The position numbers were made by a program, and so were the translations under genes. A DNA stretch of 64,000 bases from Candidatus Aenigmatarchaeota archaeon (GTDB lineage Archaea; Aenigmatarchaeota; Aenigmatarchaeia; PWEA01), in NCBI GenBank assembly GCA_046539325.1, contig JBKHHD010000003.1, positions 843 through 64,842 on the forward strand. The letters run 5' to 3'. Each line of letters opens with the position of its first letter. Position 1 is the stretch's first letter. Under the pieces are notes generated by a model, which was not told the origin of the DNA, did not search any database, and was given only the letters and a program-made list of their open reading frames with translations. Below, one piece after another: positions 31,377-62,350 of the stretch.

Positions 31377-31500
31377 GGGACGGTGGCTTAGCCTGGTTAG
31401 ACGCCGGAAAGGAAATTTCCGTTTTTTGCCGCTTCCGGTGGGCAAAAGCGCCACGCTGATAACGTGGAAGTCGCCGGTTCGAATCCGGCCCGTCCCACCA
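31377..31500 (+). tRNA. tRNA-Ile (anticodon GAT) with a ~47-nt non-canonical intron in the D-loop. CCA encoded
   Basis: Acceptor GGGACGG/CCGTCCC. D-stem GCTT...AAGC restored only after removing ~31401-31447. Anticodon arm CCACG-CTGATAA-CGTGG. T-arm GCCGG-TTCGAAT-CCGGC. Confidence 0.65.
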
Positions 31501-31544: not shown

Positions 31545-31674
31545 GCCGGCGTGGCCTAGTGGTTAAGGCGCTGCGCTCATAAACAATAATTTATGAGCTT
31601 TGATCCGCTGACGCGGAGATGAAAAATTTTGCGGTGCAACGCAGAGAGCGAGGGTTCGACCCCCTCCGCCGGCA
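31545..31674 (+). tRNA. tRNA with CAT anticodon (elongator Met or Ile2) with a 57-nt intron at 37/38. No encoded CCA
   Basis: Acceptor GCCGGCG/CGCCGGC. D-arm GCCT-AGTGGTTA-AGGC. Anticodon stem CTGCG/CGCAG. Loop CTCATA[intron]A, where intron TTATGAG pairs with loop CTCATAA. T-arm GAGGG-TTCGACC-CCCTC. TATA TTTTATAG 29 nt upstream. Confidence 0.65.
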
Positions 31675-36414: not shown

Positions 36415-36618
36415 ATGGAGGTGTGCCGAATTAAGTACGCACTTAAGGATCTTCAAAACCTCTCAGAAAAGCTTTCAGAAGACCTCAGAATTGACAATAA
36501 AGGGGTCAACGAAATTCTAAGCATTATGATTTTCTTCAGAGAAGGAAACATTGACCTTGAAACCGCAATAAAGGACCTCGATTCAATTTACGAAACCGAA
36601 CTCATCTTCAGGGGGTGA
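36415..36618 (+). CDS. Hypothetical small protein
   Basis: 67-aa ORF with ATG. No motif, no obvious RBS. Confidence 0.3.
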   Translation: MEVCRIKYALKDLQNLSEKLSEDLRIDNKGVNEILSIMIFFREGNIDLETAIKDLDSIYETELIFRG

Positions 36619-36622
36619 AAAT

Positions 36623-36760
36623 TTGATAAAGGATGATTCCTGTCCAAGATGTTCAAGGAAAGTTACTTCAAATGCTCTCGAGTGCCCGACCTGCGGACTG
36701 AAGTTAAGGATCATAGAAGAAGAAACAAGACTAAACGAAGGACGGATACAAAACTGGTAG
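36623..36760 (+). CDS. Small zinc-ribbon protein (45 aa). Not in the ORF track. TTG start
   Basis: Translation LIKDDSCPRCSRKVTSNALECPTCGLKLRIIEEETRLNEGRIQNW has two CxxC pairs. GGGGGTGA lies 5-12 nt upstream. A hairpin plus T6 follows downstream. Confidence 0.4.
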   Translation: MIKDDSCPRCSRKVTSNALECPTCGLKLRIIEEETRLNEGRIQNW

Positions 36761-47365: not shown

Positions 47366-48802
47366 ATGTCAGAAGAACTTGGAATAACTACTCCGAAGGA
47401 AGAAGACATGGGCGAGTGGTACAGGGAAGTTATAACCAAATCAGGTATGGCTGACTACACTTCCGTTAGCGGATGCATAGTCTTCAAGCCACTTTCCTAC
47501 AGAATCTGGGACAAGATTCGTGAAGAGGTTGACAGAAGATTTGAGGATATCGGCATAGAAAACGCTTATTTTCCCCTTTTTATCCCCGAAAAACTCTTGG
47601 AGAAGGAAGCCGAGCACTTTGAAGGCTTTAGTCCAGAGGTCGCATGGGTAACCAGAGCTGGAAGTTCAGAGCTGGACGAAAATCTGGCTGTAAGGCCGAC
47701 CTCTGAAGCGATTATGTACGATTCATATAAGGACTGGATAAGGTCGTGGAGAGATCTGCCTTTGCGCTTGAATCAGTGGAACAACGTCGTAAGGTGGGAA
47801 TTTAAACATGCAACGCCTTTCCTCCGGACACGTGAGTTTCTATGGAACGAAGGGCACAACGTTTACAGAACGGAGGAGCAAGCTCTCGAGGATCGCGACA
47901 AGGTGCTGGACGCATATCAGGAGGTATGTGAAGAATACATGGCTATACCATGCATAAGAGGGAGGAAGAGCAACAGAGAGAAGTTCGACGGTGCAATAGA
48001 CACCTACTCACTGGAACACCTACTTCCTGATGGACAGGCTATACAGGGACCTGACTACCACTACGACGGTACAAACTTCTCAGAAGCCTTTGATATAACC
48101 TATACGGACGAAGAAGGTGAAAAGAAGTACGTACACCAGACAACCTACGCTATAACCACACGAGAACTGGGCGTAATGGTCCTAATACACTCCGATGACC
48201 GTGGCCTTGTTATACCTCCAAGGTTGGCGGCTACGAAAACAGTTATAGTACCTATATACCACGACGAAGAGGAGAAAAAAGAGGTGCTTGAAATGACCGA
48301 GGAGATAGAAGACAAAATGGAGGACTGCAAGGTGGACGACAGGGACCACAAGACTCCTGGCTGGAAGTTCAACGAGTGGGAGGTTAAGGGTATACCTTTG
48401 AGGATAGAGATCGGGAGCAACGAGGTCGAGGAAGGCAAGGTTACTATAGTTAGACGGGATACAGGAGAAAAGGTAAGCGCAAATATCGAAGATATCGAAG
48501 AAACTGTCGAGGAGGAGCTGGGGGAGATGCAAGAAAGGCTTTACAAGAAAGCTAAGGATTACATGGAGGAAAATATAAGAGAAACGGAAAGCTACGGGGA
48601 GTTGAAGGAAATAATCGAAGAGAAGGGAGGGTTTGTAAAGGCTCCCTGGTGTGGTGAGGAACTATGTGAGGAAATAGTCAAAGACGAAACCACGGCGAAG
48701 ATAACAAATATACCGTTCAGGTACGACAAACCCAAAGGAAAGAAGTGTGTGCGCTGTGATGAGGAAGCGGAACACTGGGTGCATTTTGCAAAATCAAGGT
48801 GA
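47366..48802 (+). CDS. proS: Prolyl-tRNA synthetase, archaeal/eukaryotic type
   Basis: N-terminal MGEWYREVITKSGMADY...GCIVFKP. Class II motifs. C-terminal zinc-binding WCGEELCEE...KCVRCDEEA. GAGGTG RBS 7 nt upstream. Confidence 0.9.
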   Translation: MSEELGITTPKEEDMGEWYREVITKSGMADYTSVSGCIVFKPLSYRIWDKIREEVDRRFEDIGIENAYFPLFIPEKLLEKEAEHFEGFSPEVAWVTRAGSSELDENLAVRPTSEAIMYDSYKDWIRSWRDLPLRLNQWNNVVRWEFKHATPFLRTREFLWNEGHNVYRTEEQALEDRDKVLDAYQEVCEEYMAIPCIRGRKSNREKFDGAIDTYSLEHLLPDGQAIQGPDYHYDGTNFSEAFDITYTDEEGEKKYVHQTTYAITTRELGVMVLIHSDDRGLVIPPRLAATKTVIVPIYHDEEEKKEVLEMTEEIEDKMEDCKVDDRDHKTPGWKFNEWEVKGIPLRIEIGSNEVEEGKVTIVRRDTGEKVSANIEDIEETVEEELGEMQERLYKKAKDYMEENIRETESYGELKEIIEEKGGFVKAPWCGEELCEEIVKDETTAKITNIPFRYDKPKGKKCVRCDEEAEHWVHFAKSR

Positions 48803-48846
48803 AGGAAAAACTTTAAATACTTTTATTATAAAAGGAAGTATGATTC

Positions 48847-48867
48847 TTGAGAATTGTATTCTCAAGT
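48847..48867. repeat. Perfect 9-bp-arm palindrome between proS and psmB. A second GAAAAC/GTTTTC inverted repeat follows at ~48871-48888
   Basis: CTTGAGAAT-TGT-ATTCTCAAG, then GAAAACGTTGGGTTTTC. Confidence 0.4.
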
Positions 48868-48918
48868 TTGAAAACGTTGGGTTTTCAAATCTTCTGAGTT
48901 ATCTCAGGGGGTTCTAAC

Positions 48919-49569
48919 ATGCAAGGTATGAAACAAAACGGCGAAGAGGAAGTTAAGACAGGCACAACGACCGTTGGTGTGAAGTACAAGGATGGCTTAG
49001 TCTTAGCTACTGAAAAAAGAGCTTCTATGGGTTATCAGGTTTCCAGTAAAAACGCCAAGAAAGTTTACGAAGTCGACGGTGGAATAGGAATAACCACTGC
49101 CGGTTCAGTTGGCGATATACAGACAGTCGTCCGCTACATGAAGGCGGAGACGAACCTCTTCAAGTACCGTAAGGATAGAAAGATGTCACCAAGGTCTGTA
49201 GCAAGCCTTATGGCAAACATACTCCAGGGCTCGAAGATGGTCCCGTACATGGGTCTTTTCATACTAGGTGGCTACAACCACGAAGAAGACCAGCCGGAGG
49301 TTTACCAGCTTGATCCTGCCGGTGGAGTTTTAGGCGGTGATCCATACTACGCTACTGGCTCAGGATCACAGGTTGCTTACGGCCTCTTAGAAGACCTCTA
49401 CGAAGAGGGAATGGACAAGGACACAGCTGTCAGTATTTCCCTGAGGTCGATAAAGAGTGCTTCGAACAGAGATATAGCTTCAGGCAACGGATTTTCAGTC
49501 ATGGTAATAGACAAGGAAGGGTGTGAAGTTCTGAATGACGAAGAAGTAGACGAGTACCTCAAAGAATGA
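48919..49569 (+). CDS. psmB: Proteasome subunit beta
   Basis: The propeptide ends ...KTGTTTVGVKYKDGLVLATEKRASMG, so Thr1 of the mature enzyme follows it. Confidence 0.9.
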   Translation: MQGMKQNGEEEVKTGTTTVGVKYKDGLVLATEKRASMGYQVSSKNAKKVYEVDGGIGITTAGSVGDIQTVVRYMKAETNLFKYRKDRKMSPRSVASLMANILQGSKMVPYMGLFILGGYNHEEDQPEVYQLDPAGGVLGGDPYYATGSGSQVAYGLLEDLYEEGMDKDTAVSISLRSIKSASNRDIASGNGFSVMVIDKEGCEVLNDEEVDEYLKE

Positions 49570-49600
49570 TCGACTTTGTTTGACTTTAGAATTTCTGTAG

Positions 49601-51490
49601 GTGTTTTATGTGGAAATTATAGATAAAGTAAAAGACGGGCTTCCAAGCGATGCGATGATTTCGGAGGTCTGCTTCGAAGGAAGTGACATAGTCCTCTACA
49701 CGAAGAACAAGGAGATGTTCAAGAGCAACGGAGATTTCATAAAAAAGCTCGTCAGTAAACTGAAGAAGAGGATAGAGCTCAGACCAGACCCTTCTATAAG
49801 AAAAAATATAGAGAGCGCGAAGGAGACTATAGAGGAGAAGGTTCCCGAAGAAGCAGGCATAGAAGAGATAACCTTCCAGCCTGGCTTCGGAAAGGTAATA
49901 ATAGAGGCACATAAGCCTGGTCTAGTTATAGGTAAAGGTGGAAGCACCCTTGAAGAAATAAAGAAGGAAACTGTATGGAAGCCGCAGGTTAAGATCGCGC
50001 CAGCAATTTCTTCGGACGTAGTGGACACTGTAAGAAAGGTTCTTTATCAAGAGTCGGAATGGCGCAAGGACTTCTTAAACGACATAGGTGAAAGGATACA
50101 TTCAAAGGAAGTGGAGGAAGTGGAATGGGCAAGGATAACAGGACTGGGCGGTTGCAGGGAAGTGGGAAGAAGCTCTTTCGTGCTCCAGACCCCTGACTCG
50201 AGAATACTAATAGACTGTGGGATAAAGCCTGGAAACAAACACGAGTATCCGTACCTTCAGGTTCCTGAAGGCGATATAAGTTCTCTTGACGCCGTAGTGG
50301 TTTCACATCCACATCTCGATCATATAGGTTTTGTCCCCTACCTCTACGAGTACGGCTACGAAGGACCGCTTTACCTGACAGCCGCAACTAGAGATCTCAT
50401 GGTCCTCCTATGCTTGGATTACCTGGACGTTGCGAAAAGGGAAGGAAACGAAGTCCCGTACTCATCGAAGTCCGTGGAAAAGGCGGTTAAACATTCAATA
50501 GCTCTTGACTATGGACAGGTAAGTGATATAACTCCTGACGTAGGTCTAACCTTACAGAACGCTGGACATATATTAGGTTCTGCTCTGGCACACTTCCACA
50601 TAGGTGAAGGGGACCACAACCTAGTTTACAGTGGTGACCTGAACTTCGGCGAATCAAAGCTCTTCGACAAGGCTTCAACAGACTTTCAGAGAGTAGAAAC
50701 GCTTATCACCGAGTCGACCTACGGTGAAAACGATGCGATACAACCCTCAAGAAAGGACGCGGAGAAGCATCTACTTGAATATGTAAATAAAACTATAGAG
50801 CGCGGCGGTAAGGTACTTATACCTTCCTTTGCTGTAGGAAGAGCTCAGGAGATAATGTGTATACTCGACGAAGAAGCAAGGAAAAACGGTCTGGACGTAC
50901 CAGTCTATCTTGAAGGAATGATGTGGGACGCCACTGCTATACACACCACGTATCCAGAAGATCTAAACGATAAGCTTCAGCACCAAATATTCCACAAGGA
51001 CCACAATCCACTAACCTCTGACATATTCCACAGAGTAGCTTCGAATGAAGAAAGGGAGGAAGTAATAAACTCTCCTGATCCTGCGATAGTTCTTTCCACG
51101 TCAGGTATGCTTACAGGTGGACCAGTAATGGAGTACCTCAAAGAGTTTGCACCGGAAGAAGACAATATGCTAATATTTGTAGGTTACCAGGCAGAAGGAA
51201 CTATGGGAAGAAGAATACAGAAGGGCTGGGACGAGATACCTGTACAAAGAGAGGGTAAGAGAAAGGTTGTGGAACTGAATCTGGAAGTAGGAACTGTGGA
51301 TGGTCTTTCCGGGCATTCGGACAGAAACCAGACTATAAACTTCATAAATGCTCTCAATAGTAAGCCTAACAAAATCCTCACGGTTCATGGTGATGAAAAC
51401 AGCTGCATACAGATGGCTAGAACACTCCACAATATATTCAACAGGGAAACGATACCTCCAAAGAACCTTGAGACTATAAGGCTGAAGTAG
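49601..51490 (+). CDS. aCPSF1/FttA. KH domains plus a metallo-beta-lactamase/beta-CASP ribonuclease
   Basis: N-terminal KH-like region. VVVSHPHLDHIGFVPYL (HxHxDH). beta-CASP motifs. ~630 aa. GTG start at 49601 or 49610. Confidence 0.85.
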   Translation: MFYVEIIDKVKDGLPSDAMISEVCFEGSDIVLYTKNKEMFKSNGDFIKKLVSKLKKRIELRPDPSIRKNIESAKETIEEKVPEEAGIEEITFQPGFGKVIIEAHKPGLVIGKGGSTLEEIKKETVWKPQVKIAPAISSDVVDTVRKVLYQESEWRKDFLNDIGERIHSKEVEEVEWARITGLGGCREVGRSSFVLQTPDSRILIDCGIKPGNKHEYPYLQVPEGDISSLDAVVVSHPHLDHIGFVPYLYEYGYEGPLYLTAATRDLMVLLCLDYLDVAKREGNEVPYSSKSVEKAVKHSIALDYGQVSDITPDVGLTLQNAGHILGSALAHFHIGEGDHNLVYSGDLNFGESKLFDKASTDFQRVETLITESTYGENDAIQPSRKDAEKHLLEYVNKTIERGGKVLIPSFAVGRAQEIMCILDEEARKNGLDVPVYLEGMMWDATAIHTTYPEDLNDKLQHQIFHKDHNPLTSDIFHRVASNEEREEVINSPDPAIVLSTSGMLTGGPVMEYLKEFAPEEDNMLIFVGYQAEGTMGRRIQKGWDEIPVQREGKRKVVELNLEVGTVDGLSGHSDRNQTINFINALNSKPNKILTVHGDENSCIQMARTLHNIFNRETIPPKNLETIRLK

Positions 51491-51535
51491 CAGGAAGTTC
51501 TTCTATTTTTTAATCTCAAAAACAATATATTTCCT

Positions 51536-52360
51536 ATGGCTGATTGTAGCTACTGTGGAAAGGAAGCAGATATACCATTTAAATGTAAGTTCTGTAGTGA
51601 CACCTTTTGCTCAGAACATAGGCTGCCTGAAAACCATGAATGTGTGGGGCTTGACAAGTACAAGGAAAAGGCGCGGAGTGATGAGAAAGTAGTTTACGAA
51701 CCCTTCCAGGCGACATGGGAAAAGAAGTCCTCAGGACTTTCCTCTACCTTTCTAAAAAGCATCACCCAAAGCTACTCGATGCTAATAATCTCCATATGCT
51801 TCGTAGTTTTCCTTTTGCAAGCTGCGATACCAGGGTTTACGGAGTATCTATGGCTTTCGCCACAGCTAGGCGAAATTCTCAGTAGACCCTGGACATTTAT
51901 AACTTCAATATTTCTACATGGCAACGGGTGGCATCTTTTCGTAAATATGCTCGTCCTCTTTTTCTTTGGAGGTGAGCTTGAGAGAAGGGTAGGAAGCAGG
52001 AAGTTTTTGGAGATATTTTTAGTAACTGGAATTGCAGGAAATCTAGGCTTCACACTGTTCTCCTACGCCACTGGAGAATTCATCCCAGCAGTCGGAGCCT
52101 CGGGAGCGATATTCGGTGTTTTCGCGACTCTTGCTATAATAGCGCCGGAAATAAGAGTACTGATATGGTTCGTATTTCCCCTTAAGATACGTCAAGCGCT
52201 TGTAATATTTGCCCTATGGGACTTATTCCTACTTCCAAGAGGTGGACCTATAGCAAATTCAGCTCATTTAGCAGGACTGGCCATAGGACTAATCTATGGT
52301 TATAGATTAAAAAATAAACAAACTGGCACAGCATTTAAGAAAATAACGAGGAGGTTGTAA
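51536..52360 (+). CDS. Rhomboid-family intramembrane serine protease with an N-terminal AN1-type zinc finger
   Basis: CSYCGKEADIPFKCKFCSDTFCSEHRLPENHEC. Rhomboid GASGAIFGV and AHLAGLAIG. Confidence 0.8.
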   Translation: MADCSYCGKEADIPFKCKFCSDTFCSEHRLPENHECVGLDKYKEKARSDEKVVYEPFQATWEKKSSGLSSTFLKSITQSYSMLIISICFVVFLLQAAIPGFTEYLWLSPQLGEILSRPWTFITSIFLHGNGWHLFVNMLVLFFFGGELERRVGSRKFLEIFLVTGIAGNLGFTLFSYATGEFIPAVGASGAIFGVFATLAIIAPEIRVLIWFVFPLKIRQALVIFALWDLFLLPRGGPIANSAHLAGLAIGLIYGYRLKNKQTGTAFKKITRRL

Positions 52361-52370
52361 GGGAGCTTTT

Positions 52371-52733
52371 TTACTCTTCTTCTCCACGAACTACTTCAGC
52401 GTAAGAGGGAGCCACAACAATGTAGTTCTCGTCGACTCCTGCAATATCTCCGTCTACAGCAGTACAAGTCTTCCTTATCCTTTCGATAGCTCTCTTCAGA
52501 TCTGACATGTCCTTGTCCTTGATCTTTCTTATCTTGACGAAGACTATCCTTCCTTCCCTGACTGATTTCTGTACATCCTCCGCATCCTTGTACTCCTCAA
52601 GCTCTATTACTTCTATAGGGACAGCCCTTACCTCTCCTTCGCTGACTTCCTCTGAAAGCTCGAGAAGGTCTCTATCCTCAATTTCTTCTTCCTTCTTTCC
52701 TAAAATGTCTTTCAAAGCCAAATTTCTCACCAT
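52371..52733 (-). CDS. sepF: SepF-like (DUF552) cell-division protein
   Basis: AVPIEVIELEEYKDAEDVQKSVREGRIVFVKI...DLKRAIERIRKTCTAVDGDIAGVDENYIVVAP matches the SepF core pattern. Confidence 0.55.
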   Translation of the reverse strand: MVRNLALKDILGKKEEEIEDRDLLELSEEVSEGEVRAVPIEVIELEEYKDAEDVQKSVREGRIVFVKIRKIKDKDMSDLKRAIERIRKTCTAVDGDIAGVDENYIVVAPSYAEVVRGEEE

Positions 52734-52772
52734 TTTAATTTTTTAAATCAACTTATATAAAACTTCACAGAT

Positions 52773-53054
52773 TTACTCTCTACTAGCCGATTCTAACATC
52801 GAAACTATATTCCAGACCTGTGTTCTGGTGTACATCGGAATGTTCGCGTCGTTCGCAACATCGTCCAGCTTGGAAGTACATGAGTTTATCCTAACGGAAA
52901 GCTCTTCATCGTCGTCCTTCAAAATTTCTATACATTCCTTACACTCTTGCTGAATATTTCTAGGTACGGAGCTGTCTTCAGAAACTTGCTCCAACATATC
53001 TACTGCAGGCTCTAAACTTTCTTCCATTTTAACCACCAACATCTGTCTGGACAT
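52773..53054 (-). CDS. UPF0147-family small archaeal protein
   Basis: SVPRNIQQECKECIEIL...DANIPMYTRTQVWNIVSMLE. Confidence 0.5.
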   Translation of the reverse strand: MSRQMLVVKMEESLEPAVDMLEQVSEDSSVPRNIQQECKECIEILKDDDEELSVRINSCTSKLDDVANDANIPMYTRTQVWNIVSMLESASRE

Positions 53055-53108
53055 ATAGGACCTTGGACTATCAATTTATGAAAATTTAAATATAAAAAGC
53101 TTTTCGTG

Positions 53109-54059
53109 TCACAGCTCCTTTGCTTTGGCGTCAAAAACCTCTTCAAATCTTTCCAAAAAGGCTTCCTTGACCTCACGCAAATCCGTGTTAGTTCCGTTTC
53201 CTGATGCAGCTGCATCGTGTCCTCCGGCAGACCCTTGTAGTTCCTCTTCCAATTCGGAAAAAACGTCTTCGCCCAGGTGAACTTTATCTGTAAGACCTCT
53301 TCTGCACCTCCCACTGACCCTCATCTCCTCACCTCTTTTCGAAAATACGACAGAAACGTCTGATCCTAGTTTCAAAAAGGAACGTGCAGAAGCAGCCTCA
53401 AAGGACCCAACCTCCGAAAAGGAGACAAGCTTTCCACCAATGTCGTAGTTATCCAATCTTGAAGCGGCCTTCAGCCTTGCTATCCTCTCAGAACGATCAA
53501 CGGGCGTGCTTAAGGTCGAGAGTATGTCTGAGTAACTTTTCCCAGATTTTGGAAGGAGTTCGGAAATATAACGGAACTGTTTCTCGTCAGCAAACCTGAG
53601 GTGTGAAGTATCCGCAACCATACCACAGATCATCGCCTCCGAAGCCTTCTTGTTCGGCTCATCCTCGAAAAGCTCGTAAACTAGCTCAGCAGTAGACCTC
53701 GCCTTTGAATCAGTATATTTAAAATCAGCGAATTCGTAAAGATCGCCTGGACTATGGTGGTCAATAAGCATTATTGTACCTTCAAAGCTTCTGATGTCTG
53801 CTGAACCAAGCTGATCCGTAGAGGGACAGTCAACTATCAACAAAGTTTTGAAATTCTCAAGGTCAGGATTCTTCAAAAACTCATAACCTCCAGCCAGCTC
53901 CTTCGCACCTTTTGATACAGTATCCGGAACACCTAAGGCAACATCACCTACCAAAAACTCGTAAAGTGCTATACCAGAAGCCACTGCGTCAATATCTGCA
54001 TTATGGTGAGCTAAAATTAAGATATCTTCAGAACCTTTCAACTTTTCTTCAAACTTCAT
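53109..54059 (-). CDS. DHH-family phosphoesterase (nanoRNase / RecJ-like core)
   Basis: DHH ILILAHHNADIDAVASG. GGGH GSAGGHDAAASG. The ATG at 54059 follows GGGTGG. The ORF track starts at the TTG at 54071. Confidence 0.75.
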   Translation of the reverse strand: MKFEEKLKGSEDILILAHHNADIDAVASGIALYEFLVGDVALGVPDTVSKGAKELAGGYEFLKNPDLENFKTLLIVDCPSTDQLGSADIRSFEGTIMLIDHHSPGDLYEFADFKYTDSKARSTAELVYELFEDEPNKKASEAMICGMVADTSHLRFADEKQFRYISELLPKSGKSYSDILSTLSTPVDRSERIARLKAASRLDNYDIGGKLVSFSEVGSFEAASARSFLKLGSDVSVVFSKRGEEMRVSGRCRRGLTDKVHLGEDVFSELEEELQGSAGGHDAAASGNGTNTDLREVKEAFLERFEEVFDAKAKEL

Positions 54060-54101
54060 GAAACCACCCAATTTATAGAAAAATAGATACTAGGGGGATT
54101 T

Positions 54102-54476
54102 TTATCCTGCTTCTTCTGGACTTCCTCCAGTCATAAGACCTCTTAGTTCCTTCTGCTTCTCCTGAGCCTCCTTCTCTATGTCCTTCTCCTTCTTCTCAAG
54201 AGACTCTATCTTGACTTCCAGTGACTCCTGTTTCTCTTCAAGTTCCTCTAGGAAGTCCTCTCTGTCGGTCTTTATCACAGCTGGTCCGGCTACCTTGAAA
54301 ACCTCTTCCTCGTCACTCGCTTCCTTTAGAGCCTGGACTGCTTGATCGATCTGTGACTTCTGAGCCTTCATCTCTGTCTTTTGCTGCTCCATTTGCTGAA
54401 GCTGCTGTTGCTGCTGCTGTAGCTCACCGATCATCTGCTGTGCCTCTGGTGGCATATTCTGTGGATTTTGTGGCAT
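54102..54476 (-). CDS. pfdB: Prefoldin subunit beta
   Basis: ~120-aa coiled-coil / beta-hairpin / coiled-coil. VFKVAGPAVIKTDREDFLEELEEK. Confidence 0.75.
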   Translation of the reverse strand: MPQNPQNMPPEAQQMIGELQQQQQQLQQMEQQKTEMKAQKSQIDQAVQALKEASDEEEVFKVAGPAVIKTDREDFLEELEEKQESLEVKIESLEKKEKDIEKEAQEKQKELRGLMTGGSPEEAG

Positions 54477-54703
54477 TAGTTTTCACCTCCTATCATTGAT
54501 TTTTGTGCTGTCTTTACAAGTCTTAGTATAGTGTTTACACCTGCCCTGAGATTTGAAATGTTTCCAACATCCACACAAACCCCTAGACAGCTATCATTAA
54601 CTTCCATGCTGACATCAAGCGAACTTGATTCATCGTCCTCGACTTCAATAGCTTTCTTAACAAGCTCAGGCGACTTTATATCAAGTTCAAGTTCAGCTCT
54701 CAT
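54476..54703 (-). CDS. pcc1: KEOPS subunit Pcc1-like
   Basis: 75 aa. ...NISNLRAGVNTILRLVKTA C-terminal helix pattern. Conserved superoperon position. Confidence 0.6.
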   Translation of the reverse strand: MRAELELDIKSPELVKKAIEVEDDESSSLDVSMEVNDSCLGVCVDVGNISNLRAGVNTILRLVKTAQKSMIGGEN

Positions 54704-54704
54704 T

Positions 54705-54842
54705 CTATCTGGCTTTGATCTCCTTTACACCAGCAGCCCTCTTCTTCTTTAAAATTCTATACCCGCAGAAAGGGCATCTAATTCTTCTCCTCAAGTCGTC
54801 CTTCTCTATATCCTCTTCACATTTCAAACATTTGTATGTCAT
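54705..54842 (-). CDS. rpoP: DNA-directed RNA polymerase subunit P (Rpb12/RpoP). Not in the ORF track
   Basis: MTYKCLKCEEDIEKDDLRRRIRCPFCGYRILKKKRAAGVKEIKAR with CxxC...CxxCGYRI. Its ATG overlaps the rpl37ae stop as TAATG. Confidence 0.7.
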   Translation of the reverse strand: MTYKCLKCEEDIEKDDLRRRIRCPFCGYRILKKKRAAGVKEIKAR

Positions 54843-55099
54843 TATTCTTCACCTGATTTCTCCAGAACCTTTTCGACCATACTTTTGCCCTTTGTCTTAG
54901 GTCTCCATGCACCGCCTGCTATCTTGTTACCGCACTTCTTGCATTTCCATATACCCTTGGCCTCTCTTTTCAAGGCTTCCGATCCACACTCAGGACACTC
55001 GTGTTTATCCTTTTGATCCTTCTCTATCTCAGATACCTTGCTCCTTATCCTCTTACCGTACCTTGCTCCGTATCTCTTTCCACTGTCGTTATCGGCCAT
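54842..55099 (-). CDS. rpl37ae: 50S ribosomal protein L37Ae (eL43)
   Basis: MADNDSGKRYGARYGKRIR...HECPECGSEALKREAKGIWKCKKCGNKIAGGAW. The ORF-track start at 55252 would overlap rrp42. Confidence 0.85.
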   Translation of the reverse strand: MADNDSGKRYGARYGKRIRSKVSEIEKDQKDKHECPECGSEALKREAKGIWKCKKCGNKIAGGAWRPKTKGKSMVEKVLEKSGEE

Positions 55100-55106
55100 A
55101 CTACCA

Positions 55107-55877
55107 CTAGATAAGCTTTCTAAGGTCTGAAGACTTTTCCTTTGCCAGCTCGAAAATCTCAAGCAGCTCTTCCTTCTGGAAGCCTCCATTGCCTCTCTTC
55201 TGAAGCGAGCAAAGTTCTTCTTTGGTCCAAGTAACTGTAACCATACCGTCAACCACCTTTTCCTCGACTAGGCCTGGGTCAACAATGTAGTTGTCATCTA
55301 CCTTGCCTATAGTACAGGCAATCGGAGTTTTAAGAACTTCAAAGTCCTCCTCCTCATCACGAAGCACTTCACCGTCATCGTAACCTGGCATCTTGGCTTC
55401 CTTAAGAGCCTTTATAGCTCCAAGAGCAGAGGCATCCATTAGGTTTCCATTGTGGTCAAGGACATGTATGTCAACCATGACCTTCCAGACCTTCTCGCCT
55501 TCCTCGATACATAGCTCTTCAAGAGGAATTGCTTCACATTCCCTCAAACCTCTGTCTATAACTCTTGCGAGCTCGGTCGCGTCTTTTCCTGGCGGTCCTG
55601 ACTCAAAGTCAGGCGAAGCCATAGGCCCAAGCTCTGCGTTAACCATCAACATTCCTTCATCAGGAGTGTCTGGGAACGGCTCACCTAAGCCAAACTTGAC
55701 GCCAACTATAACCTTCGTGTCTCCAAGAACAACTTTTGCACTTCCTTCGGCTTTTTTGGCTACTCCTGTCTCTATTTCTATGTCTCTGAACTCTTCCAGA
55801 TCTCTATCATCGGTCCTTTCACCGCTTTTTATACTGTCTAAAGCAGCCTCTTCTTCAATTTCAGTTATCTCCATCAT
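55107..55877 (-). CDS. rrp42: Exosome complex component Rrp42
   Basis: Inactive RNase PH-like subunit. RTDDRDLEEFRDIEIETGV...GSAKVVLGDTKVIVGVK. 4-nt overlap with rrp41. Confidence 0.85.
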   Translation of the reverse strand: MMEITEIEEEAALDSIKSGERTDDRDLEEFRDIEIETGVAKKAEGSAKVVLGDTKVIVGVKFGLGEPFPDTPDEGMLMVNAELGPMASPDFESGPPGKDATELARVIDRGLRECEAIPLEELCIEEGEKVWKVMVDIHVLDHNGNLMDASALGAIKALKEAKMPGYDDGEVLRDEEEDFEVLKTPIACTIGKVDDNYIVDPGLVEEKVVDGMVTVTWTKEELCSLQKRGNGGFQKEELLEIFELAKEKSSDLRKLI

Positions 55878-56590
55878 TTTTTATCCCCAAATGTTTCCAT
55901 TAAAGCTTCTCTTTGTTTTTCAGCAACTTTTTTACAACCACCTATTGCTAGGTCAAGCATCTCGTCCATCTCATCTACGTTAGTCATTCCGTCCATCTGC
56001 AATAGAGTTATCTCGCCTGTATCCGTGTTCATCGCTATCGGCAGATCAACCTGCCCGTCCTTGTCTTCCTCGCCTTTCAGATCAAGTACAGGCGTGTCCT
56101 CAATCTTGCCTGATGCACAGGCAGAAATCAGGCCCTTCATGGGTATTCCTGCATCGGCAAGGGCTATAGCTCCTGCATTCAGAGCAACACATCTCGTTCC
56201 TGCATCAGCAGAAATGACCTCCATGTAGACATCGATAGTAGCTGTCGGGAACTCCTCCAAAAATACTATGGAAGAAAGTGCTCCTTCAGCAACCTTTCCA
56301 ATTTCTTTACCCCTTCTCGAAGGACCTGGCCTTTTCCTGTCGTCTACAGAAAAAGGAGCCAGATTGTATCTACATTGAATAATTCCTCTTTGTGGCTTTT
56401 GCTTGTGTTTTGGATGCAGCTCCCTTGGACCAAAGACGGAAGCAATTACTTCTGTGCCTCCCATTCGGAAGTATCCTGAGCCGTCGGCTCTTTTTAAAAT
56501 TCCTGCCTCGGCTTCCATGTCCCTGAGCTCATCCTTAGCTCTACCGTCGATCCTTTTACCATCTTTCAAAAGCTCTTTATTTTCGCTCAT
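55874..56590 (-). CDS. rrp41: Exosome complex exonuclease Rrp41
   Basis: RNase PH core RADGSGYFRMGGTEVIASVFGPRE. Phosphate-binding GPSRRGKE. DAGTRCVALNAG. Confidence 0.9.
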   Translation of the reverse strand: MSENKELLKDGKRIDGRAKDELRDMEAEAGILKRADGSGYFRMGGTEVIASVFGPRELHPKHKQKPQRGIIQCRYNLAPFSVDDRKRPGPSRRGKEIGKVAEGALSSIVFLEEFPTATIDVYMEVISADAGTRCVALNAGAIALADAGIPMKGLISACASGKIEDTPVLDLKGEEDKDGQVDLPIAMNTDTGEITLLQMDGMTNVDEMDEMLDLAIGGCKKVAEKQREALMETFGDKK

Positions 56591-56594
56591 ATTA

Positions 56595-57269
56595 TCACCT
56601 TTTTTTCAGTATTTTTTCTACTTTGTCCGTTAGACCTCTTTCATGGCCTCTTTTATCCACCGTTCTAACTGCCTCAGCAGCAAGATCTTCGTCGCCGCCG
56701 TTGACCCAAACAATTCCGTTCTGGCCGATGATTATTCTTGAGTCAGTTTTGTCCTTTATCATCTCCACCATCGATCCACCTTTGCCTATAAGCCTTGGAA
56801 CCTTGCTTGGACTTATCCTTATAAGCCTTCCTCCTGTAAGCTTCTTGCATATTCTGTCCTGCATCGAAAGCTTGACGTCCTTCTCGCTGGTTACCTTTAT
56901 AACTTCCGTGTAGATCATGTCACCGATATCGTAGACATCGGAAAGCTCCGTTTCATCAAGGTCTATGAACTCGTCGGAACCTTCTGCCAGAGACAGATAA
57001 CCGTCGTATGGCGAATCAAGCTCAACCCACCAGTGGCTTGGTCCAATACCTGTAATCCTTCCAATTACATTGTCACCTTCCTGTGGGATGTAACCTCCAC
57101 TCAGAGGTATTACTCTCATCCTATTTTTCTTTGTCCTTGCAACTCCGAGGACCTTAGATTTTACCTTTTCGTTTTCTTTGTAAGTACCTCTTCCCGAAAG
57201 CACATCACCTTCAGCTATTACGTCTCCGGGAAGTACGTTCGATTTATCTTCAACTAGTTTTTGTCCCAT
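56595..57269 (-). CDS. rrp4: Exosome RNA-binding subunit Rrp4 (S1 + KH)
   Basis: N-terminal VLPGDVIAEGD, S1 region, KH GKGGSMVEMIKDKT. Confidence 0.85.
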   Translation of the reverse strand: MGQKLVEDKSNVLPGDVIAEGDVLSGRGTYKENEKVKSKVLGVARTKKNRMRVIPLSGGYIPQEGDNVIGRITGIGPSHWWVELDSPYDGYLSLAEGSDEFIDLDETELSDVYDIGDMIYTEVIKVTSEKDVKLSMQDRICKKLTGGRLIRISPSKVPRLIGKGGSMVEMIKDKTDSRIIIGQNGIVWVNGGDEDLAAEAVRTVDKRGHERGLTDKVEKILKKR

Positions 57270-57282
57270 TTAATTCACCTCA

Positions 57283-57981
57283 TCAATCATCTATTATTTT
57301 AGTTTCAACTTCACCTTTTGTTACTGAATTCGCCTTCTTATAAAACTTGTCCTGTAAACCTGCAGGCATTTTTACTACAGCCCTCCACGAACCGTCGTTC
57401 CCCCAGTCCTCTTTTTCTATCTCCCCTATATCTCTCAGTTTTCCAGAGGCCTCGCCAGCATGGTCAGCTGGAACGCGAATCGCTATCTTGACCTCCTCCA
57501 CGGATATAGGCAGTATAGCCTTTATTTCGTCCAGCGCCTCCTTAACCTGCTCCTCAACACTCCTCATCTCATCGACGTGTATCCCTGCTTCGTCCATCGC
57601 GTTCTTTATCCTCTTTGGAGGATGTGGCTTACCCGTCTGTGGATTAACTGCGCGCCGGGCTATGGTCGACGCGATTTCCTTCCTCATCTCCTCCCGCATC
57701 TCTCTTCTCTGTTCAGTTGTAATCTGAACTTCCCCATTCCTTATAATCTCGTAAACTATCTCCTTTATATCGTTGGTTCCGAATACCTTGTTGAGCTCGT
57801 CGTCACCGACCCTCTTGCCCTTTTCCGCGTCTTCAAAAACTTCGTCCGCGGCTATCAGATCGTCTAGATCCACATTCTCGCCGTCCTTGACTTCAAGCGC
57901 GTTGTCAGGATCGACGAGCACCTCAAAATGCTCTCCATGTGAGTCAAGACGAGCTATCACCGCATCGTCAACAGATATCAT
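57283..57981 (-). CDS. sbds: Ribosome maturation protein SBDS homolog
   Basis: N-terminal FYSH-like ARLDSHGEHFEVLVDPDNALEVKDG...DEVFEDAEKGKRVGDDELNKVFGT. Conserved superoperon position. Confidence 0.85.
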   Translation of the reverse strand: MISVDDAVIARLDSHGEHFEVLVDPDNALEVKDGENVDLDDLIAADEVFEDAEKGKRVGDDELNKVFGTNDIKEIVYEIIRNGEVQITTEQRREMREEMRKEIASTIARRAVNPQTGKPHPPKRIKNAMDEAGIHVDEMRSVEEQVKEALDEIKAILPISVEEVKIAIRVPADHAGEASGKLRDIGEIEKEDWGNDGSWRAVVKMPAGLQDKFYKKANSVTKGEVETKIIDD

Positions 57982-57985
57982 CGGA

Positions 57986-58693
57986 TCACAGGAGCCCTTC
58001 GCACTCCTCCTGATCTGAGTATCGGAAACCGTCTTCCTCTGTAACTACTGCCATCTTGACAGTGTTCTTGTTCATGTTGGTCTTACCCTCTGAAAGTACT
58101 TCAACAGCAAGCTCCTTCGCTTCATCCTCTGAAAGCCCTTCTTCCCACTTTTCCTCAAGAAGCTCTTCGCCGCCTTGTCTTCCTTTGCCAATGACCTGTG
58201 CGTTCCATCCGTAGATGTCGCCACCCACGTCTGTTTCGAAGATCATAGGCTCGCCTTTGTAGACGCCACCAACCAAGAAAGAAACTCCCATCGGCCTCAG
58301 ACCTCCGTACTGTGTATGCTGCTGCTTGAAGTCGCCTATCTCTTCAGCCAAAGATCTCACATCTATCTTCTCCTGATATGAAATTCTGTACACCTGTGCC
58401 TGTTGCCTTGCGTTGTTCACAAGAACTCTTGTGTCGCCGACCAAACCAGCTGATACAGCACCTACATGCTCGTCCAACTGGTGTACCTTCCTGCTACCTC
58501 TATCATCGGAAAGCTTGTCACAAGGCCTTAGACCAGCTAGCACAACGCCGTCTTCGAACTTCAAGGCTGTGCATGTAGCGGCTCTCTTTATGGCTTCTCT
58601 TGCGTACTCTACCTGAAAAAGACGTCCGTCAGGTGAGAAGGTAACGATAGCTCTATCGTAACCCATTTTCCCTTGTTTTTGCATCATTCCCAT
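57986..58693 (-). CDS. psmA: Proteasome subunit alpha
   Basis: YDRAIVTFSPDGRLFQVEYA N-terminal signature. Confidence 0.9.
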   Translation of the reverse strand: MGMMQKQGKMGYDRAIVTFSPDGRLFQVEYAREAIKRAATCTALKFEDGVVLAGLRPCDKLSDDRGSRKVHQLDEHVGAVSAGLVGDTRVLVNNARQQAQVYRISYQEKIDVRSLAEEIGDFKQQHTQYGGLRPMGVSFLVGGVYKGEPMIFETDVGGDIYGWNAQVIGKGRQGGEELLEEKWEEGLSEDEAKELAVEVLSEGKTNMNKNTVKMAVVTEEDGFRYSDQEECEGLL

Positions 58694-58828
58694 GATTGTT
58701 CACCAATTTACCTATTATTGAAATGGCTAGAATTGCCACATCTCTCTTTTTTCCAAATACTTATTACACCCAACCTTTAAAAGTTTTTACACGATAAGAA
58801 ACCGATCCCAAACAGCTATAACTAAATA

Positions 58829-59533
58829 CTAGCTCTTCTTTTTCTGGTAAAAATCACAGATTTTGCTGAGCAAGCACTCGCCACACAAGGGTTTTCTTGC
58901 TTTACAGATCTCCCTACCGTGTTTTATCAGATTTATGTGAAACTCCTGCTTCCTTTCTCCTGGAATCTTCTCCTCAAGAATTTCGTGTGCCTTTTCCCTT
59001 GTACTTTTCTCAGGAATCAGTCCAAGGCGCTTAGTAACGCGAAAAACATGTGTATCAACCGGAAACGCTTCCTTTCCGAAGGTAAAGTTTAGGATAACAG
59101 CAGCGCTCTTTGGACCTATGCCAGGAAGCTCTCTCAACCACTGCTTCGCCTCCTCTACATCCATTTCATCCAGAAAGTCGAGAGTGAGCTCTCCGCGCTC
59201 CTCCTTTATCCTTTCAAGGCACTCTTTCATCCTCTTCCCTTTTGTGTTATGAAGGCCAGCCACGGAGATAACCTCTGAAACCTCTTCGACCTCTGCTTCC
59301 ATTATATCTTCAGGGTCATTGAACTTCTCAGTAAGCTTCCTGTAAGCTCTGTCTCTGTTCACGTCGTTGGTGTTCTGCGACAGAATTACCTGTATCAAAG
59401 ACTGTATAGGATCTCCTCTACCTGAAACTTGCGGAACGCCGTATTCCTCTCTCAAAAGGTTCATTACTTTGTTAAGCTTCGCCATGTTACCAAAGTTCCA
59501 TTCTACAAATTTAAACTTCAACCCAGTTGCCAA
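58829..59533 (-). CDS. nth: Endonuclease III-like HhH-GPD DNA glycosylase with a 4Fe-4S cluster
   Basis: HhH LPGIGPKSAAVIL. Asp-loop FPVDTHVFRV. CKARKPLCGECLLSKIC. Confidence 0.85.
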   Translation of the reverse strand: MATGLKFKFVEWNFGNMAKLNKVMNLLREEYGVPQVSGRGDPIQSLIQVILSQNTNDVNRDRAYRKLTEKFNDPEDIMEAEVEEVSEVISVAGLHNTKGKRMKECLERIKEERGELTLDFLDEMDVEEAKQWLRELPGIGPKSAAVILNFTFGKEAFPVDTHVFRVTKRLGLIPEKSTREKAHEILEEKIPGERKQEFHINLIKHGREICKARKPLCGECLLSKICDFYQKKKS

Positions 59534-59576: not shown

Positions 59577-59661
59577 GCGGGGGTACCCAAGTGGCCGAAG
59601 GGGCAGCGTTGAGGGCGCTGTGCACGTAGGTGCTTCGTCGGTTCGAATCCGGCCCCCCGCA
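59577..59661 (+). tRNA. tRNA-Leu (anticodon GAG). No encoded CCA
   Basis: Acceptor GCGGGGG/CCCCCGC. 3-bp D-stem CCC/GGG. Anticodon arm CAGCG-TTGAGGG-CGCTG. Long variable arm GCAC-GTAG-GTGC. T-arm GTCGG-TTCGAAT-CCGGC. Confidence 0.85.
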
Positions 59662-59929: not shown

Positions 59930-60364
59930 ATGGAGAAAAGGTTTGAGATCATAGAGGATGAGGCAACTGCAGATATAGCCTACAGAGCTTATGGAGAGAC
60001 TCTGGAAGAGATGTACGAGAGCGCGGCCCTCGGTCTCTTCGACATAATAACCGACATCGAGGACGTAAATACACTACAAACAGACCTGATAACAGTTTCA
60101 GCCGAGGACCGAGAAGCTCTGTTGCTGGACTTCCTAAATGAGCTCCTGTACAGATGGGACGTGGACAAGGTCCTGTTTTCGAAATTCTCCTGTGATCTTC
60201 AAACAAAGGACGGGAGTTTGGAACTCTCCGCGAACTGCGAAGGGGAGAAGTTCGACGCCGAAAGACATGAAAACAGAGTCGAGGTCAAGGCAGTCACCTA
60301 CTTCGGGATGGAGATCCAAGAAGAAGAGGGAGTTTGGACCGGAAAGATAACCATCGACGTCTGA
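59930..60364 (+). CDS. Archease (RtcB activator)
   Basis: FEIIEDEATADIAYRAYGETLEE...VKAVTYFGMEIQEEEGVWTGKITIDV. Confidence 0.85.
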   Translation: MEKRFEIIEDEATADIAYRAYGETLEEMYESAALGLFDIITDIEDVNTLQTDLITVSAEDREALLLDFLNELLYRWDVDKVLFSKFSCDLQTKDGSLELSANCEGEKFDAERHENRVEVKAVTYFGMEIQEEEGVWTGKITIDV

Positions 60365-60417: not shown

Positions 60418-60900
60418 TTGAAGACCTACATGACTATCTACTTTAACTCGGACGGAAAGAGACCTTCTGATGTAGTCAAAAAGCTCGAGGACCTTGGTTT
60501 CGAGCTCAACAGAGGAGACTACGATTTCATATATGACTGGGATGAAGAGACCTCTCTGGACCACATAATGAGCCTCGGTGACAACATAAAGGAACTTCTG
60601 AAAGGAGACAAGGTTCTCTTCGAAATAAAGACAAGTGAAGGCGAAGAGGAGGAAGAAGAGGGGGAGATGAGGACCTATATGAAGCTTGTCTTCAGCGCCG
60701 AAGAAGGAAAATCTCCTACCGATACAGACGACATCATTGCTGACCTTGTCGATATAGGCTTCGAGCCCATAAAGGGAAGTTACGATTACGTTTACAGATG
60801 GCCAGAATCCGTAGACGTCGACGCAATACTTGAAGTAGCTGACAGGGTTTACGATTCTCTCAGGGGCTGCGGCGTGTACTTCAAGCTGAAGACCGTGTAG
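60418..60900 (+). CDS. Uncharacterised acidic protein made of two tandem ~75-aa repeats. TTG start
   Basis: Repeat 1 MKTYMTIYFNSDGKRPSDVVKKLEDLGFELNRGDYDFIYDWDEE. Repeat 2 MRTYMKLVFSAEEGKSPTDTDDIIADLVDIGFEPIKGSYDYVYRWPES. GGGGTGG RBS upstream of the TTG. Lies between archease and rtcB. Confidence 0.55.
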   Translation: MKTYMTIYFNSDGKRPSDVVKKLEDLGFELNRGDYDFIYDWDEETSLDHIMSLGDNIKELLKGDKVLFEIKTSEGEEEEEEGEMRTYMKLVFSAEEGKSPTDTDDIIADLVDIGFEPIKGSYDYVYRWPESVDVDAILEVADRVYDSLRGCGVYFKLKTV

Positions 60901-60916: not shown

Positions 60917-62350
60917 ATGGTAGATCTAAATAAGATAAACAAAAACACATGGGAAATTCCCAAGGAAGATGGAATGAACGTCCCTGGAAGAGTATACGCT
61001 TCCGAGGAACTTCTTCAGCAGATAAAGGAGGATAAAACTCTCGAGCAGATAAAGAACGTTGCCCATCTTCCTGGTATTTACAATTACTCTATAGCAATGC
61101 CTGACGCCCATCAGGGCTACGGATTCCCTATAGGAGGTGTAGCGGCCTTGGACGTGGGAGAAGGCGGAATAAGTCCTGGGGGTGTCGGCTACGATATCAA
61201 CTGCGGCATTCGCCTGGTAAAAACTCCGCTGAAGGTTGATGATGTAAGAAATAGGCTCAAGGAACTCATAAACGTACTTTTCCAAAGAGTTCCTTCGGGC
61301 GTCGGAAAGAGTTCTACAATTTCTCTTGACAAGAACGACCTCGAAGACGTTATAGAAAACGGTGCAAAATGGGCCGTTGAAAACGGATACGGCATTAAAG
61401 AAGACCTGAAAAATCTGGAAGAGAACGGGAGGATGAAAGAAGCTGATGCCTCCGAGGTCTCGGATAAGGCTATGAACCGTGGAAAGGAACAGGTAGGATG
61501 TCTTGGCGCAGGAAACCATTTTCTTGAGGTGGAGAAGGTAGGAAATATAGATAATGAAAAAGTTGCGAAGGAGTTTGGCATGGAAGAAGATCAGGTGTGT
61601 GTCATGATCCACACCGGTTCAAGAGGTTTCGGCCACCAGGTCTGCACAGATTATCTTCGCGAAACCGAAAAGAAGTACAAGAACGTAGTTCGTAATCTCC
61701 CCGACAAAGAGCTTGTATACGCTCCAGGGGGTTCAAGGATGGCGGAGAGGTACTTCAAGGCGATGAGCTGTGCCGTGAACTTCGCCTTCGCAAACAGACA
61801 GGTAATAATGCATCAGGTAAGGAAAGCCTTCCAGGAAGTCTTCGAACTGGATTACGAGGATCTGGAGCTTGTGTACGGCGTCTGCCACAACGTCGCCAAA
61901 AAGGAAGAGCATGAAGTAAACGGAGAAAGTAAAGAAGTATACGTACATAGAAAGGGCGCGACCCGTGCCTTCCCACCAGGTCACAAAAAGGTGCCGGAAA
62001 ACTACAGGAACGTAGGACAACCCGTTCTCATCCCCGGGAATATGGGTGAAGGAAGCTATCTGCTCCGAGGAACTGAAAAATCTATGGACCTGTCCTTTGG
62101 AACTGCACCACACGGCTCAGGAAGGATCATGTCCCGAACAAAGGCAAAGGGAGAGTTCTGGGGCGAAACCGTGGCCAAAGATCTGAAGAAGAAAAAGGAC
62201 ATACTAGTCAAGGCGGCATCAATGCCTGTCGTCGCCGAGGAAGCTCCAGGAGCATACAAGAACCTCAAGGAGGTCGTAGAAGCTTCACATGATTTAGGCG
62301 TGGCAGAGAAGGTTTTGAAACTGGATCCTATGGGTGTCATAAAGGGCTGA
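60917..62350 (+). CDS. rtcB: RNA-splicing ligase RtcB
   Basis: GGVGYDINCGIRLV, GAGNHFLEV, HTGSRGFGHQV, NVGQPVLIPGNMG, APHGSGR. Confidence 0.93.
   Translation: MVDLNKINKNTWEIPKEDGMNVPGRVYASEELLQQIKEDKTLEQIKNVAHLPGIYNYSIAMPDAHQGYGFPIGGVAALDVGEGGISPGGVGYDINCGIRLVKTPLKVDDVRNRLKELINVLFQRVPSGVGKSSTISLDKNDLEDVIENGAKWAVENGYGIKEDLKNLEENGRMKEADASEVSDKAMNRGKEQVGCLGAGNHFLEVEKVGNIDNEKVAKEFGMEEDQVCVMIHTGSRGFGHQVCTDYLRETEKKYKNVVRNLPDKELVYAPGGSRMAERYFKAMSCAVNFAFANRQVIMHQVRKAFQEVFELDYEDLELVYGVCHNVAKKEEHEVNGESKEVYVHRKGATRAFPPGHKKVPENYRNVGQPVLIPGNMGEGSYLLRGTEKSMDLSFGTAPHGSGRIMSRTKAKGEFWGETVAKDLKKKKDILVKAASMPVVAEEAPGAYKNLKEVVEASHDLGVAEKVLKLDPMGVIKG

Follow-up and report, generated by a model that had tools for sequence, protein, structure and literature searches.

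The genes for the archaeal exosome reportedly belong to a superoperon, one that Koonin, Wolf and Aravind are said to have predicted in 2001 (Genome Res 11:240). Later papers, in the passages where they summarize the arrangement, describe exosome subunits whose genes are grouped with those for proteasome subunits, SBDS, L37AE, and a subunit of RNA polymerase, and also a second conserved pair, in which a proteasome subunit gene stands beside the gene for a beta-CASP/KH nuclease (PMC3095777, PMC2695463, PMC2588523). The subject here is a cluster of this kind in a stretch of 64,000 nucleotides (64 kb; hereafter the window) from contig JBKHHD010000003.1, part of a metagenome-assembled genome (MAG) of a Candidatus Aenigmatarchaeota archaeon, an organism that lies within the DPANN kingdom Nanobdellati. 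The cluster is almost certainly the canonical exosome/proteasome superoperon of archaea, and two of its small genes, rpoP (45 amino acids) and the gene for ribosomal protein L37Ae (85 amino acids), are genuine and already publicly annotated.

Ten co-directional genes form the cluster, all on the minus strand and running from 58693 to 53109. Their positions, together with that of the intergenic region that precedes them, were taken from a list of open reading frames (ORFs) and from the sequence, with junctions recomputed.

58694-58828, minus strand: 135-nucleotide intergenic region upstream of psmA, with a candidate TATA-like TTTTAAA at 58782-58776, read from the sequence
58693-57986, minus strand: psmA (proteasome alpha subunit), first gene of the row; 235 amino acids
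57981-57283, minus strand: SBDS, a ribosome assembly factor, 4-nucleotide gap after psmA; 232 amino acids
57269-56595, minus strand: rrp4, 13-nucleotide gap after SBDS; 224 amino acids
56590-55874, minus strand: rrp41, 4-nucleotide gap after rrp4; 238 amino acids
55877-55107, minus strand: rrp42, 4-nucleotide ATGA overlap with rrp41; 256 amino acids
55099-54842, minus strand: rpl37ae (eL43), 7-nucleotide gap after rrp42; 85 amino acids
54842-54705, minus strand: rpoP (Rpo12/Rpb12 homologue), 1-nucleotide overlap with rpl37ae (TAATG); 45 amino acids
54703-54476, minus strand: pcc1 (KEOPS subunit), 1-nucleotide gap after rpoP; 75 amino acids
54476-54102, minus strand: pfdB (prefoldin beta subunit), 1-nucleotide overlap with pcc1 (TAATG); 124 amino acids
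54059-53109, minus strand: NrnA-like DHH/DHHA1 phosphoesterase, 42-nucleotide gap after pfdB; 316 amino acids

From psmA to pfdB, nine genes are tightly packed, with junctions between -4 and +13 nucleotides. Shine-Dalgarno motifs precede most genes of the cluster; these are GAGGTGA before rrp4, AGGTGA before rrp41 and rpoP, and GGAGGTGA before pfdB. A preliminary description, made from the letters of this DNA, had already named the ten genes, their strand, and their order, and had listed the overlaps and the single-nucleotide gap. Searches of Pfam, of NCBIfam, and (for RpoP) of PDB bear out the identities, and the recomputed junctions agree with the listed overlaps and gap.

When set against maps of the superoperon, the core psmA-SBDS-Rrp4-Rrp41-Rrp42-L37Ae-RpoP matches, and the co-directional order attributed to Koonin and colleagues continues here as far as PfdB. 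The second pair of that superoperon is present too. It lies on the opposite strand, about 1.6 kb beyond the minus-strand row, as psmB (48919-49569) and aCPSF1/FttA (49601-51490). For a wider comparison, 80 species-level archaeal loci were sampled. Here, Rrp4, Rrp41, and Rrp42 are contiguous in 79 of the 80, and RpoP adjoins L37ae in 61 of 68.

Family searches of Pfam and NCBIfam support all ten identities, that of the DHH gene through its Pfam domains. Seven of the nine named products exceed their curated NCBIfam cutoffs. These are psmA (NF003075, 255 bits against a cutoff of 219; in Pfam, PF00227 at 2.6e-46 and PF10584), SBDS (TIGR00291, 285.8 bits against 126.55; SBDS_N, SBDS_domain_II, and SBDS_C in Pfam), the exosome cap protein Rrp4 with its S1 and KH domains (NF003181, 236.6 bits against 200; ECR1_N_2, RRP4_S1, and KH_6 in Pfam), the non-catalytic RNase PH-like Rrp42 (NF003282, 300.8 bits against 280), L37ae, Pcc1 (NF011470, 43.2 bits against 27; PF09341 at 3.7e-08), and PfdB (TIGR02338, 74.1 bits against 73; PF01920 at 2.1e-19). 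The catalytic RNase PH-like subunit, Rrp41, matches TIGR02065 with 303.7 bits (E 6.6e-91), and retains all 53 of the columns that are invariant among 20 diverse Rrp41 sequences. These include R92, R93, T132, R133, D176, and D182, which we take to be the conserved phosphate-binding and catalytic residues of this protein. An exact-sequence look-up of the 124-amino acid PfdB finds no entry in the protein collection, while the identical gene is called on a related contig (L003, 2859-3233); the missing entry is probably a quirk of the database rather than a sign of an alternative start.

The 45-amino acid product of rpoP, MTYKCLKCEEDIEKDDLRRRIRCPFCGYRILKKKRAAGVKEIKAR, is a zinc ribbon that contains two CxxC pairs together with a CPxCGYRI motif. 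Its scores against family models are borderline. With Pfam PF03604 it obtains 24.0 bits, exactly at the cutoff of 24; with NCBIfam NF001606 it obtains 54.8 bits (E 5.9e-15), where the equivalog cutoff is 72; and every other NCBIfam model of RpoP likewise scores it under the curated cutoff. Such scores would give some comfort to the view that the frame is open by chance, or encodes some generic zinc ribbon, with the real subunit P of RNA polymerase encoded elsewhere, as would the fact that the search for another RpoP covered the 64-kb window. The scores were therefore followed by four independent tests.

The first of these is structural. The protein aligns over its full length to the Rpo12 chains of solved archaeal polymerases (36rp_P at 1.5e-07, 4qiw_P at 2.5e-07, and 2pmz_P at 3.5e-05 in PDB), in an alignment that takes in the two CxxC pairs as well as the CPxCGYRI motif and the basic tail. 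The second used a hidden Markov model (HMM) built from 71 syntenic RpoPs. With this, the 45-amino acid protein scores 66.6 bits and is the sole strong match in the window, the runner-up ORFs obtaining 13 bits or less; these are L37Ae itself and an ORF at 36572-36757. The latter, as the next-best zinc ribbon, was considered as a second RpoP and rejected, being a generic double zinc ribbon. A scan of the six-frame ORFs of the window with HMMs from the 80 related loci, run without filters and at E<=10, found no second RpoP.

The third test concerns codons. Compared with a relative that is about 85% identical in nucleotides (L001), rpoP has 12 changed codons that are synonymous and none that is non-synonymous; compared with a further one (L007), there are 22 synonymous and five non-synonymous changes. 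Judged from these codon changes, rpoP is under purifying selection. Last, a Shine-Dalgarno motif, AGGTGA, lies 6 nucleotides upstream of the start. To these can be added the position of the gene after L37ae, which is that seen in the 61 of 68 loci mentioned above, and the name that NCBI has given to the protein, RpoP. Thus, the 45-amino acid RpoP with its CxxC...CxxCGYRI pattern is a genuine gene, as the preliminary description had proposed. Neither a better RpoP elsewhere in the 64-kb window nor a lack of conservation in this ORF appears in the available data, and the view of it as a chance ORF or a stray zinc ribbon, hardly credible on this evidence, is effectively refuted.

The protein is, of course, a predicted polymerase subunit, with the prediction made from sequence. 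It shares the zinc ribbon CxxC...CPxCG[YS][RK]I with Rpo12 of the solved archaeal polymerases (36rp_P, 4qiw_P, 2pmz_P) and with eukaryotic Rpb12/RPABC4, and, like Rpo12 of the archaeal polymerases, has a basic C-terminal tail that ends in KA(R). At 45 amino acids, it is two to four residues shorter than the solved Rpo12 chains, which have 48-49, and is some 40-45% identical to them, as estimated by eye from printed alignments.

For the neighbouring L37Ae, the issue is not whether the gene exists, but where it begins. The Pfam search finds both of the families that the preliminary description had named for a check, RNA_pol_Rpb12 (PF03604, at the 24.0 bits given above) and Ribosomal_L37ae (PF01780, 99.9 bits against a cutoff of 21.9), and the C4 zinc ribbon of L37Ae, CPECG...CKKCG, is legible in the sequence. 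The mechanical ORF list, however, presents a protein of 136 amino acids that starts 51 codons before ATG 55099, at TTG 55252, and whose frame shares 146 nucleotides with rrp42. If this were the true product, L37Ae would carry an N-terminal extension running into rrp42, and the frame is indeed open across all 51 codons, in the window as well as in L003, a contig identical to it.

Five relatives say otherwise. In L001, L002, L004, L005, and L006, the upstream frame is open for only 15 codons, with no start codon between its closure and the methionine. The family profiles, too, start a few residues from Met52 of the 136-amino acid ORF: PF01780 aligns its positions 9-82 to residues 59-132 of that ORF, and NCBIfam NF003058, with 103.7 bits against a cutoff of 87, aligns its positions 11-86 to residues 7-82 of the 85-amino acid form. 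Every gene caller, the NCBI annotation included, chooses the 85-amino acid protein. Because of the profile starts, the closed frame in five relatives, and the agreement of the gene callers, ATG 55099 is favoured, and the true L37Ae is the protein of 85 amino acids; that it could be the extended one, at the price of a 146-nucleotide overlap with rrp42, is most improbable. The preliminary description was therefore right to call the listed ORF over-extended by 51 codons into rrp42, and relatives do not conserve the extension.

To the databases, however, neither point is news. The exact 45-amino acid protein is in GenBank as MFP4116738.1 ("DNA-directed RNA polymerase subunit P"), and the exact 85-amino acid protein as MFP4116739.1 ("50S ribosomal protein L37ae"), both from a Candidatus Aenigmatarchaeota archaeon MAG. 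There, they stand on a contig of 94,023 bp between MFP4116737.1 (Pcc1) and MFP4116741.1 (Rrp41). Gene callers also report both genes on six related contigs, of which one is identical to the window and the other five are about 83-86% identical; these contigs come from NCBI assemblies GCA_003555465.1 and GCA_022257635.1, from soda-lake sediment metagenomes of JGI, and from Logan assemblies. Over 8.6 kb, the Logan contig L003 shows 100% identity to the window. In three relatives that are more distant, with Rrp41 identities of 68%, 63%, and 56%, a gene of 44 or 45 amino acids and an L37ae of 80-85 amino acids are called.

What had been described as an unannotated rpoP and a corrected L37Ae start thus fails as discovery. 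The ORF list lacks rpoP because it applies a length cut-off, and shows the gene when run with min_aa=30; it over-extends L37Ae because it begins each frame at whichever possible start codon comes first after a stop. With both proteins already in GenBank and in the output of gene callers, the two points mirror the mechanical ORF list, not the state of annotation. The rpoP gene and the L37Ae start are already known, and the cluster is a known system in an ordinary configuration.

How such a cluster is expressed can be suggested from its layout. Most likely, it would be transcribed as a single polycistronic unit, with its promoter in the region that precedes psmA, where the sequence, read by eye, offers the TATA-like candidate listed above. 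At the ATGA and TAATG junctions, translation would probably be coupled, which would balance the synthesis of subunits. The result would be co-expression of the exosome core (the Rrp4 cap and the Rrp41/Rrp42 ring) with the alpha subunit of the 20S proteasome, SBDS, eL43, Rpo12, Pcc1, and prefoldin beta. Rfam, applied to the whole window and again to 52-60 kb, found only tRNAs, and no structured RNA inside the operon.

Several points weigh against reading the cluster as the canonical superoperon expressed in this way. Two of its products stay below strict NCBIfam equivalog cutoffs: RpoP, with its 54.8 bits against 72, and Rrp41, whose 303.7 bits compare with 318.7 for TIGR02065, although the E-values are decisive in both cases. 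Co-transcription and translational coupling are proposed from the spacing of genes. The 42-nucleotide spacer between pfdB and the DHH gene, TATTTTTCTATAAAT, is T-rich and TATA-like, and could therefore hold a terminator or an internal promoter. Finally, the fullest type of superoperon sampled, that of Methanobacterium (L046), reads L15e-PF01877-Rpp30-Pop5-psmA-SBDS-Rrp4-Rrp41-Rrp42-L37ae-RpoP-Brix-Pcc1-PfdB-DUF3194 (assigned by Pfam, with Brix by PDB 1W94). Compared with this, the cluster here is without L15e, PF01877, Rpp30, and Pop5 upstream, is without Brix, and ends in a DHH phosphoesterase rather than in DUF3194.

The missing Brix gene had been taken, in the preliminary description, as consistent with a reduced genome. 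The absence itself holds, both for the operon and for the window. HMMs from related loci, among them a Brix model seeded from L046 (the seed matching PDB 1W94 at 2.2e-15), find no homologue of Brix, Pop5, Rpp30, L15e, or PF01877 among the six-frame ORFs of the 64 kb at E<=10, and neither RNase P RNA nor the RNase P proteins Pop5 and Rpp30 are detected in the window. The operons of the Aenigmatarchaeota relatives examined (L001-L008, L087-L089) contain no Brix, Pop5, Rpp30, or L15e either. Given an organism that belongs to DPANN, these absences would fit a loss of Brix and the RNase P genes from the genome through genome reduction, rather than their mere relocation.

The comparison does not carry the inference that far. 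Of the 53 complete intervals from L37ae to PfdB, 30 contain no Brix, among them those of Thermoplasmata, ANME-2/Methanosarcinales, and other Methanomicrobia, lineages that are not known for reduced genomes. Because its absence is so common, a Brix-less operon is on its own no sign of genome reduction, and is uninformative on genome size. In most other archaea sampled, Pop5 and Rpp30 lie directly upstream of psmA, where this genome has endonuclease III (nth) instead; but several loci of other lineages (L043, L053, L058, L072, and the Thermococcus locus L075) have no Pop5 there either. The search covered 64 kb of the genome. On balance, outright loss through genome reduction is less likely than not. 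A literature search combining "Brix" and "DPANN" returned irrelevant matches only.

The tail L37ae-RpoP-Pcc1-PfdB-DHH is the most frequent pattern in the sample (12 of 54), and is found in identical form in Brix-less loci from Thermoplasmata, ANME-2/Methanosarcinales, and others (L020, L025, L038, L042, L044, L066, L073). Where this genome has nth upstream of psmA, those loci usually keep Pop5, whether or not Rpp30 and L15e accompany it. One member of the tail varies close to home: in the distant Aenigmatarchaeota relatives L088 (8754-9341) and L089 (8790-9338), no pcc1 is called between rpoP and pfdB, so that the KEOPS subunit is a variable member even within Aenigmatarchaeota.

The last gene of the row encodes a two-domain protein (Pfam DHH at 2.3e-16, DHHA1 at 1.7e-07). 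Its start is most likely ATG 54059, which gives the 316 amino acids reported by gene callers, rather than TTG 54071, where the ORF list places it. The metal-binding motifs I-IV and the GGH motif can be read in the sequence as HHNADID, LIVDC, IDHH, VADTS, and AGGHDAAAS. In this, the protein resembles the bacterial nanoRNase-pAp phosphatases NrnA and Rv2837c (CnpB), which have the same DHH-DHHA1 arrangement, the same motifs, and some 320 amino acids, and which are its best solved relatives. The match is a distant one only, however, at 6.5e-13 over residues 13-238. No NCBIfam equivalog fits, the NrnA model NF053633 giving 15 bits against a cutoff of 350, and the RecJ, GAN, and HAN families were considered and set aside. 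On these sequence comparisons, the gene is to be filed as encoding an "NrnA-like DHH/DHHA1 protein", not as NrnA.

Whether this gene belongs to the cluster is a matter on which the evidence is divided. The T-rich, TATA-like spacer described above would suit an unrelated neighbour with a promoter of its own. In Methanobacteria, DUF3194 follows PfdB instead, and a DHH gene is absent there in many loci. Further, the one characterized archaeal homologue of NrnA that was found, PyapApase, is a pAp-specific phosphatase that is tied to sulfate assimilation by its gene cluster and does not cut nanoRNA (PMC8268124). Being specific for pAp and placed in a sulfate-assimilation cluster, PyapApase is a different paralogue.

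Against this stands the recurrence of the arrangement. In 28 of the 80 species loci, spread over at least five major lineages, pfdB is followed by a homologous DHH gene that is placed and oriented as it is here; the gene is seen in Hadarchaeota, Thermoplasmata, Methanosarcinales/ANME-2, Hydrothermarchaeota, Thermococci, and Aenigmatarchaeota. The loci include L019, L020, L025, L033, L035, L038, L042, L044, L051, L056, L059, L060, L062, L066, L071, L073, L076, and L080-L083, among others. The gaps between pfdB and DHH are mostly from -14 to +90 nucleotides, taking the first in-frame methionine as the start. Within Aenigmatarchaeota, every relative whose contig reaches past pfdB has the DHH gene in this position. 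The DHH phosphoesterase is thus the probable terminal gene of the cluster, and that it is a mere neighbour with no functional part in it is doubtful, though well short of negligible.

The archaeal exosome leaves short oligonucleotides, and a nanoRNase role for the NrnA-like protein, acting on exosome products, would be plausible. With due tentativeness, the NrnA-like DHH protein may be put forward as a conserved, apparently undiscussed tenth member of the superoperon, one that could be the missing archaeal nanoRNase that finishes those oligonucleotides; as a complete proposal, this is less likely than not. In the literature searched, no link of the DHH/NrnA family to the archaeal exosome or to prefoldin was found. 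Work on RecJ3/4 and aRNase J deals with archaea that lack an exosome, and with proteins that are larger and carry S1 and OB domains besides DHH (PMC10470531).

Some features of the surroundings may be recorded here. A block at 47366-59533 is conserved in Aenigmatarchaeota relatives (L087, L088) down to 63% Rrp41 identity, with the order nth-psmA...pfdB-DHH-UPF0147-SepF, followed on the opposite strand by rhomboid/AN1-aCPSF1(FttA)-psmB-ProRS. Farther out on the plus strand, between the genes for archease (59930-60364) and the tRNA ligase RtcB (60917-62350), an ORF at 60418-60900 encodes an acidic protein of 160 amino acids that matches nothing in Pfam or NCBIfam and looks like two tandem halves of about 75 amino acids with a glutamate-rich linker. 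Among the tRNAs, Rfam reports a match of 130 nucleotides at 31545-31674 (plus strand), which probably contains an intron, and a partial one at 31431-31489, neither of which ARAGORN finds. Conversely, tRNA-Leu(GAG) at 59577-59661 (plus strand) is found by ARAGORN, and by Rfam only with permissive filters (48.3 bits).

The proteins encoded at 52371-58693 (minus strand) are strongly acidic, with isoelectric points (pI) of 4.3-5.0 and 17-27% aspartate plus glutamate; the exceptions are the two basic zinc-ribbon proteins and Rrp4 (pI 6.2). Several of the contigs that match the window derive from soda-lake sediment metagenomes. Together, the acidic proteins and the soda-lake source of matching contigs suggest that this DPANN archaeon has a salt-in lifestyle.

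As a discovery, the cluster carries little weight, being a standard example of conserved archaeal gene order. Its practical value is that of a positive control, in which a reading of the sequence alone recovered a 45-amino acid gene and the right start codon; it also illustrates how mechanical ORF lists, with a length cut-off and starts chosen for the longest ORF, create false "annotation gaps". Two modest facts are added to what was known. One is that a clade of Aenigmatarchaeota conserves the whole block of some 12 kb that starts with nth, includes the operon, and extends to ProRS; the other is that, in the sampled archaeal species, no tail is commoner than the Brix-less one with DHH at its end. 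The recurrence of the DHH gene at the end of that tail, in turn, provides a cheap lead to the archaeal nanoRNase that may complete the work of the exosome.

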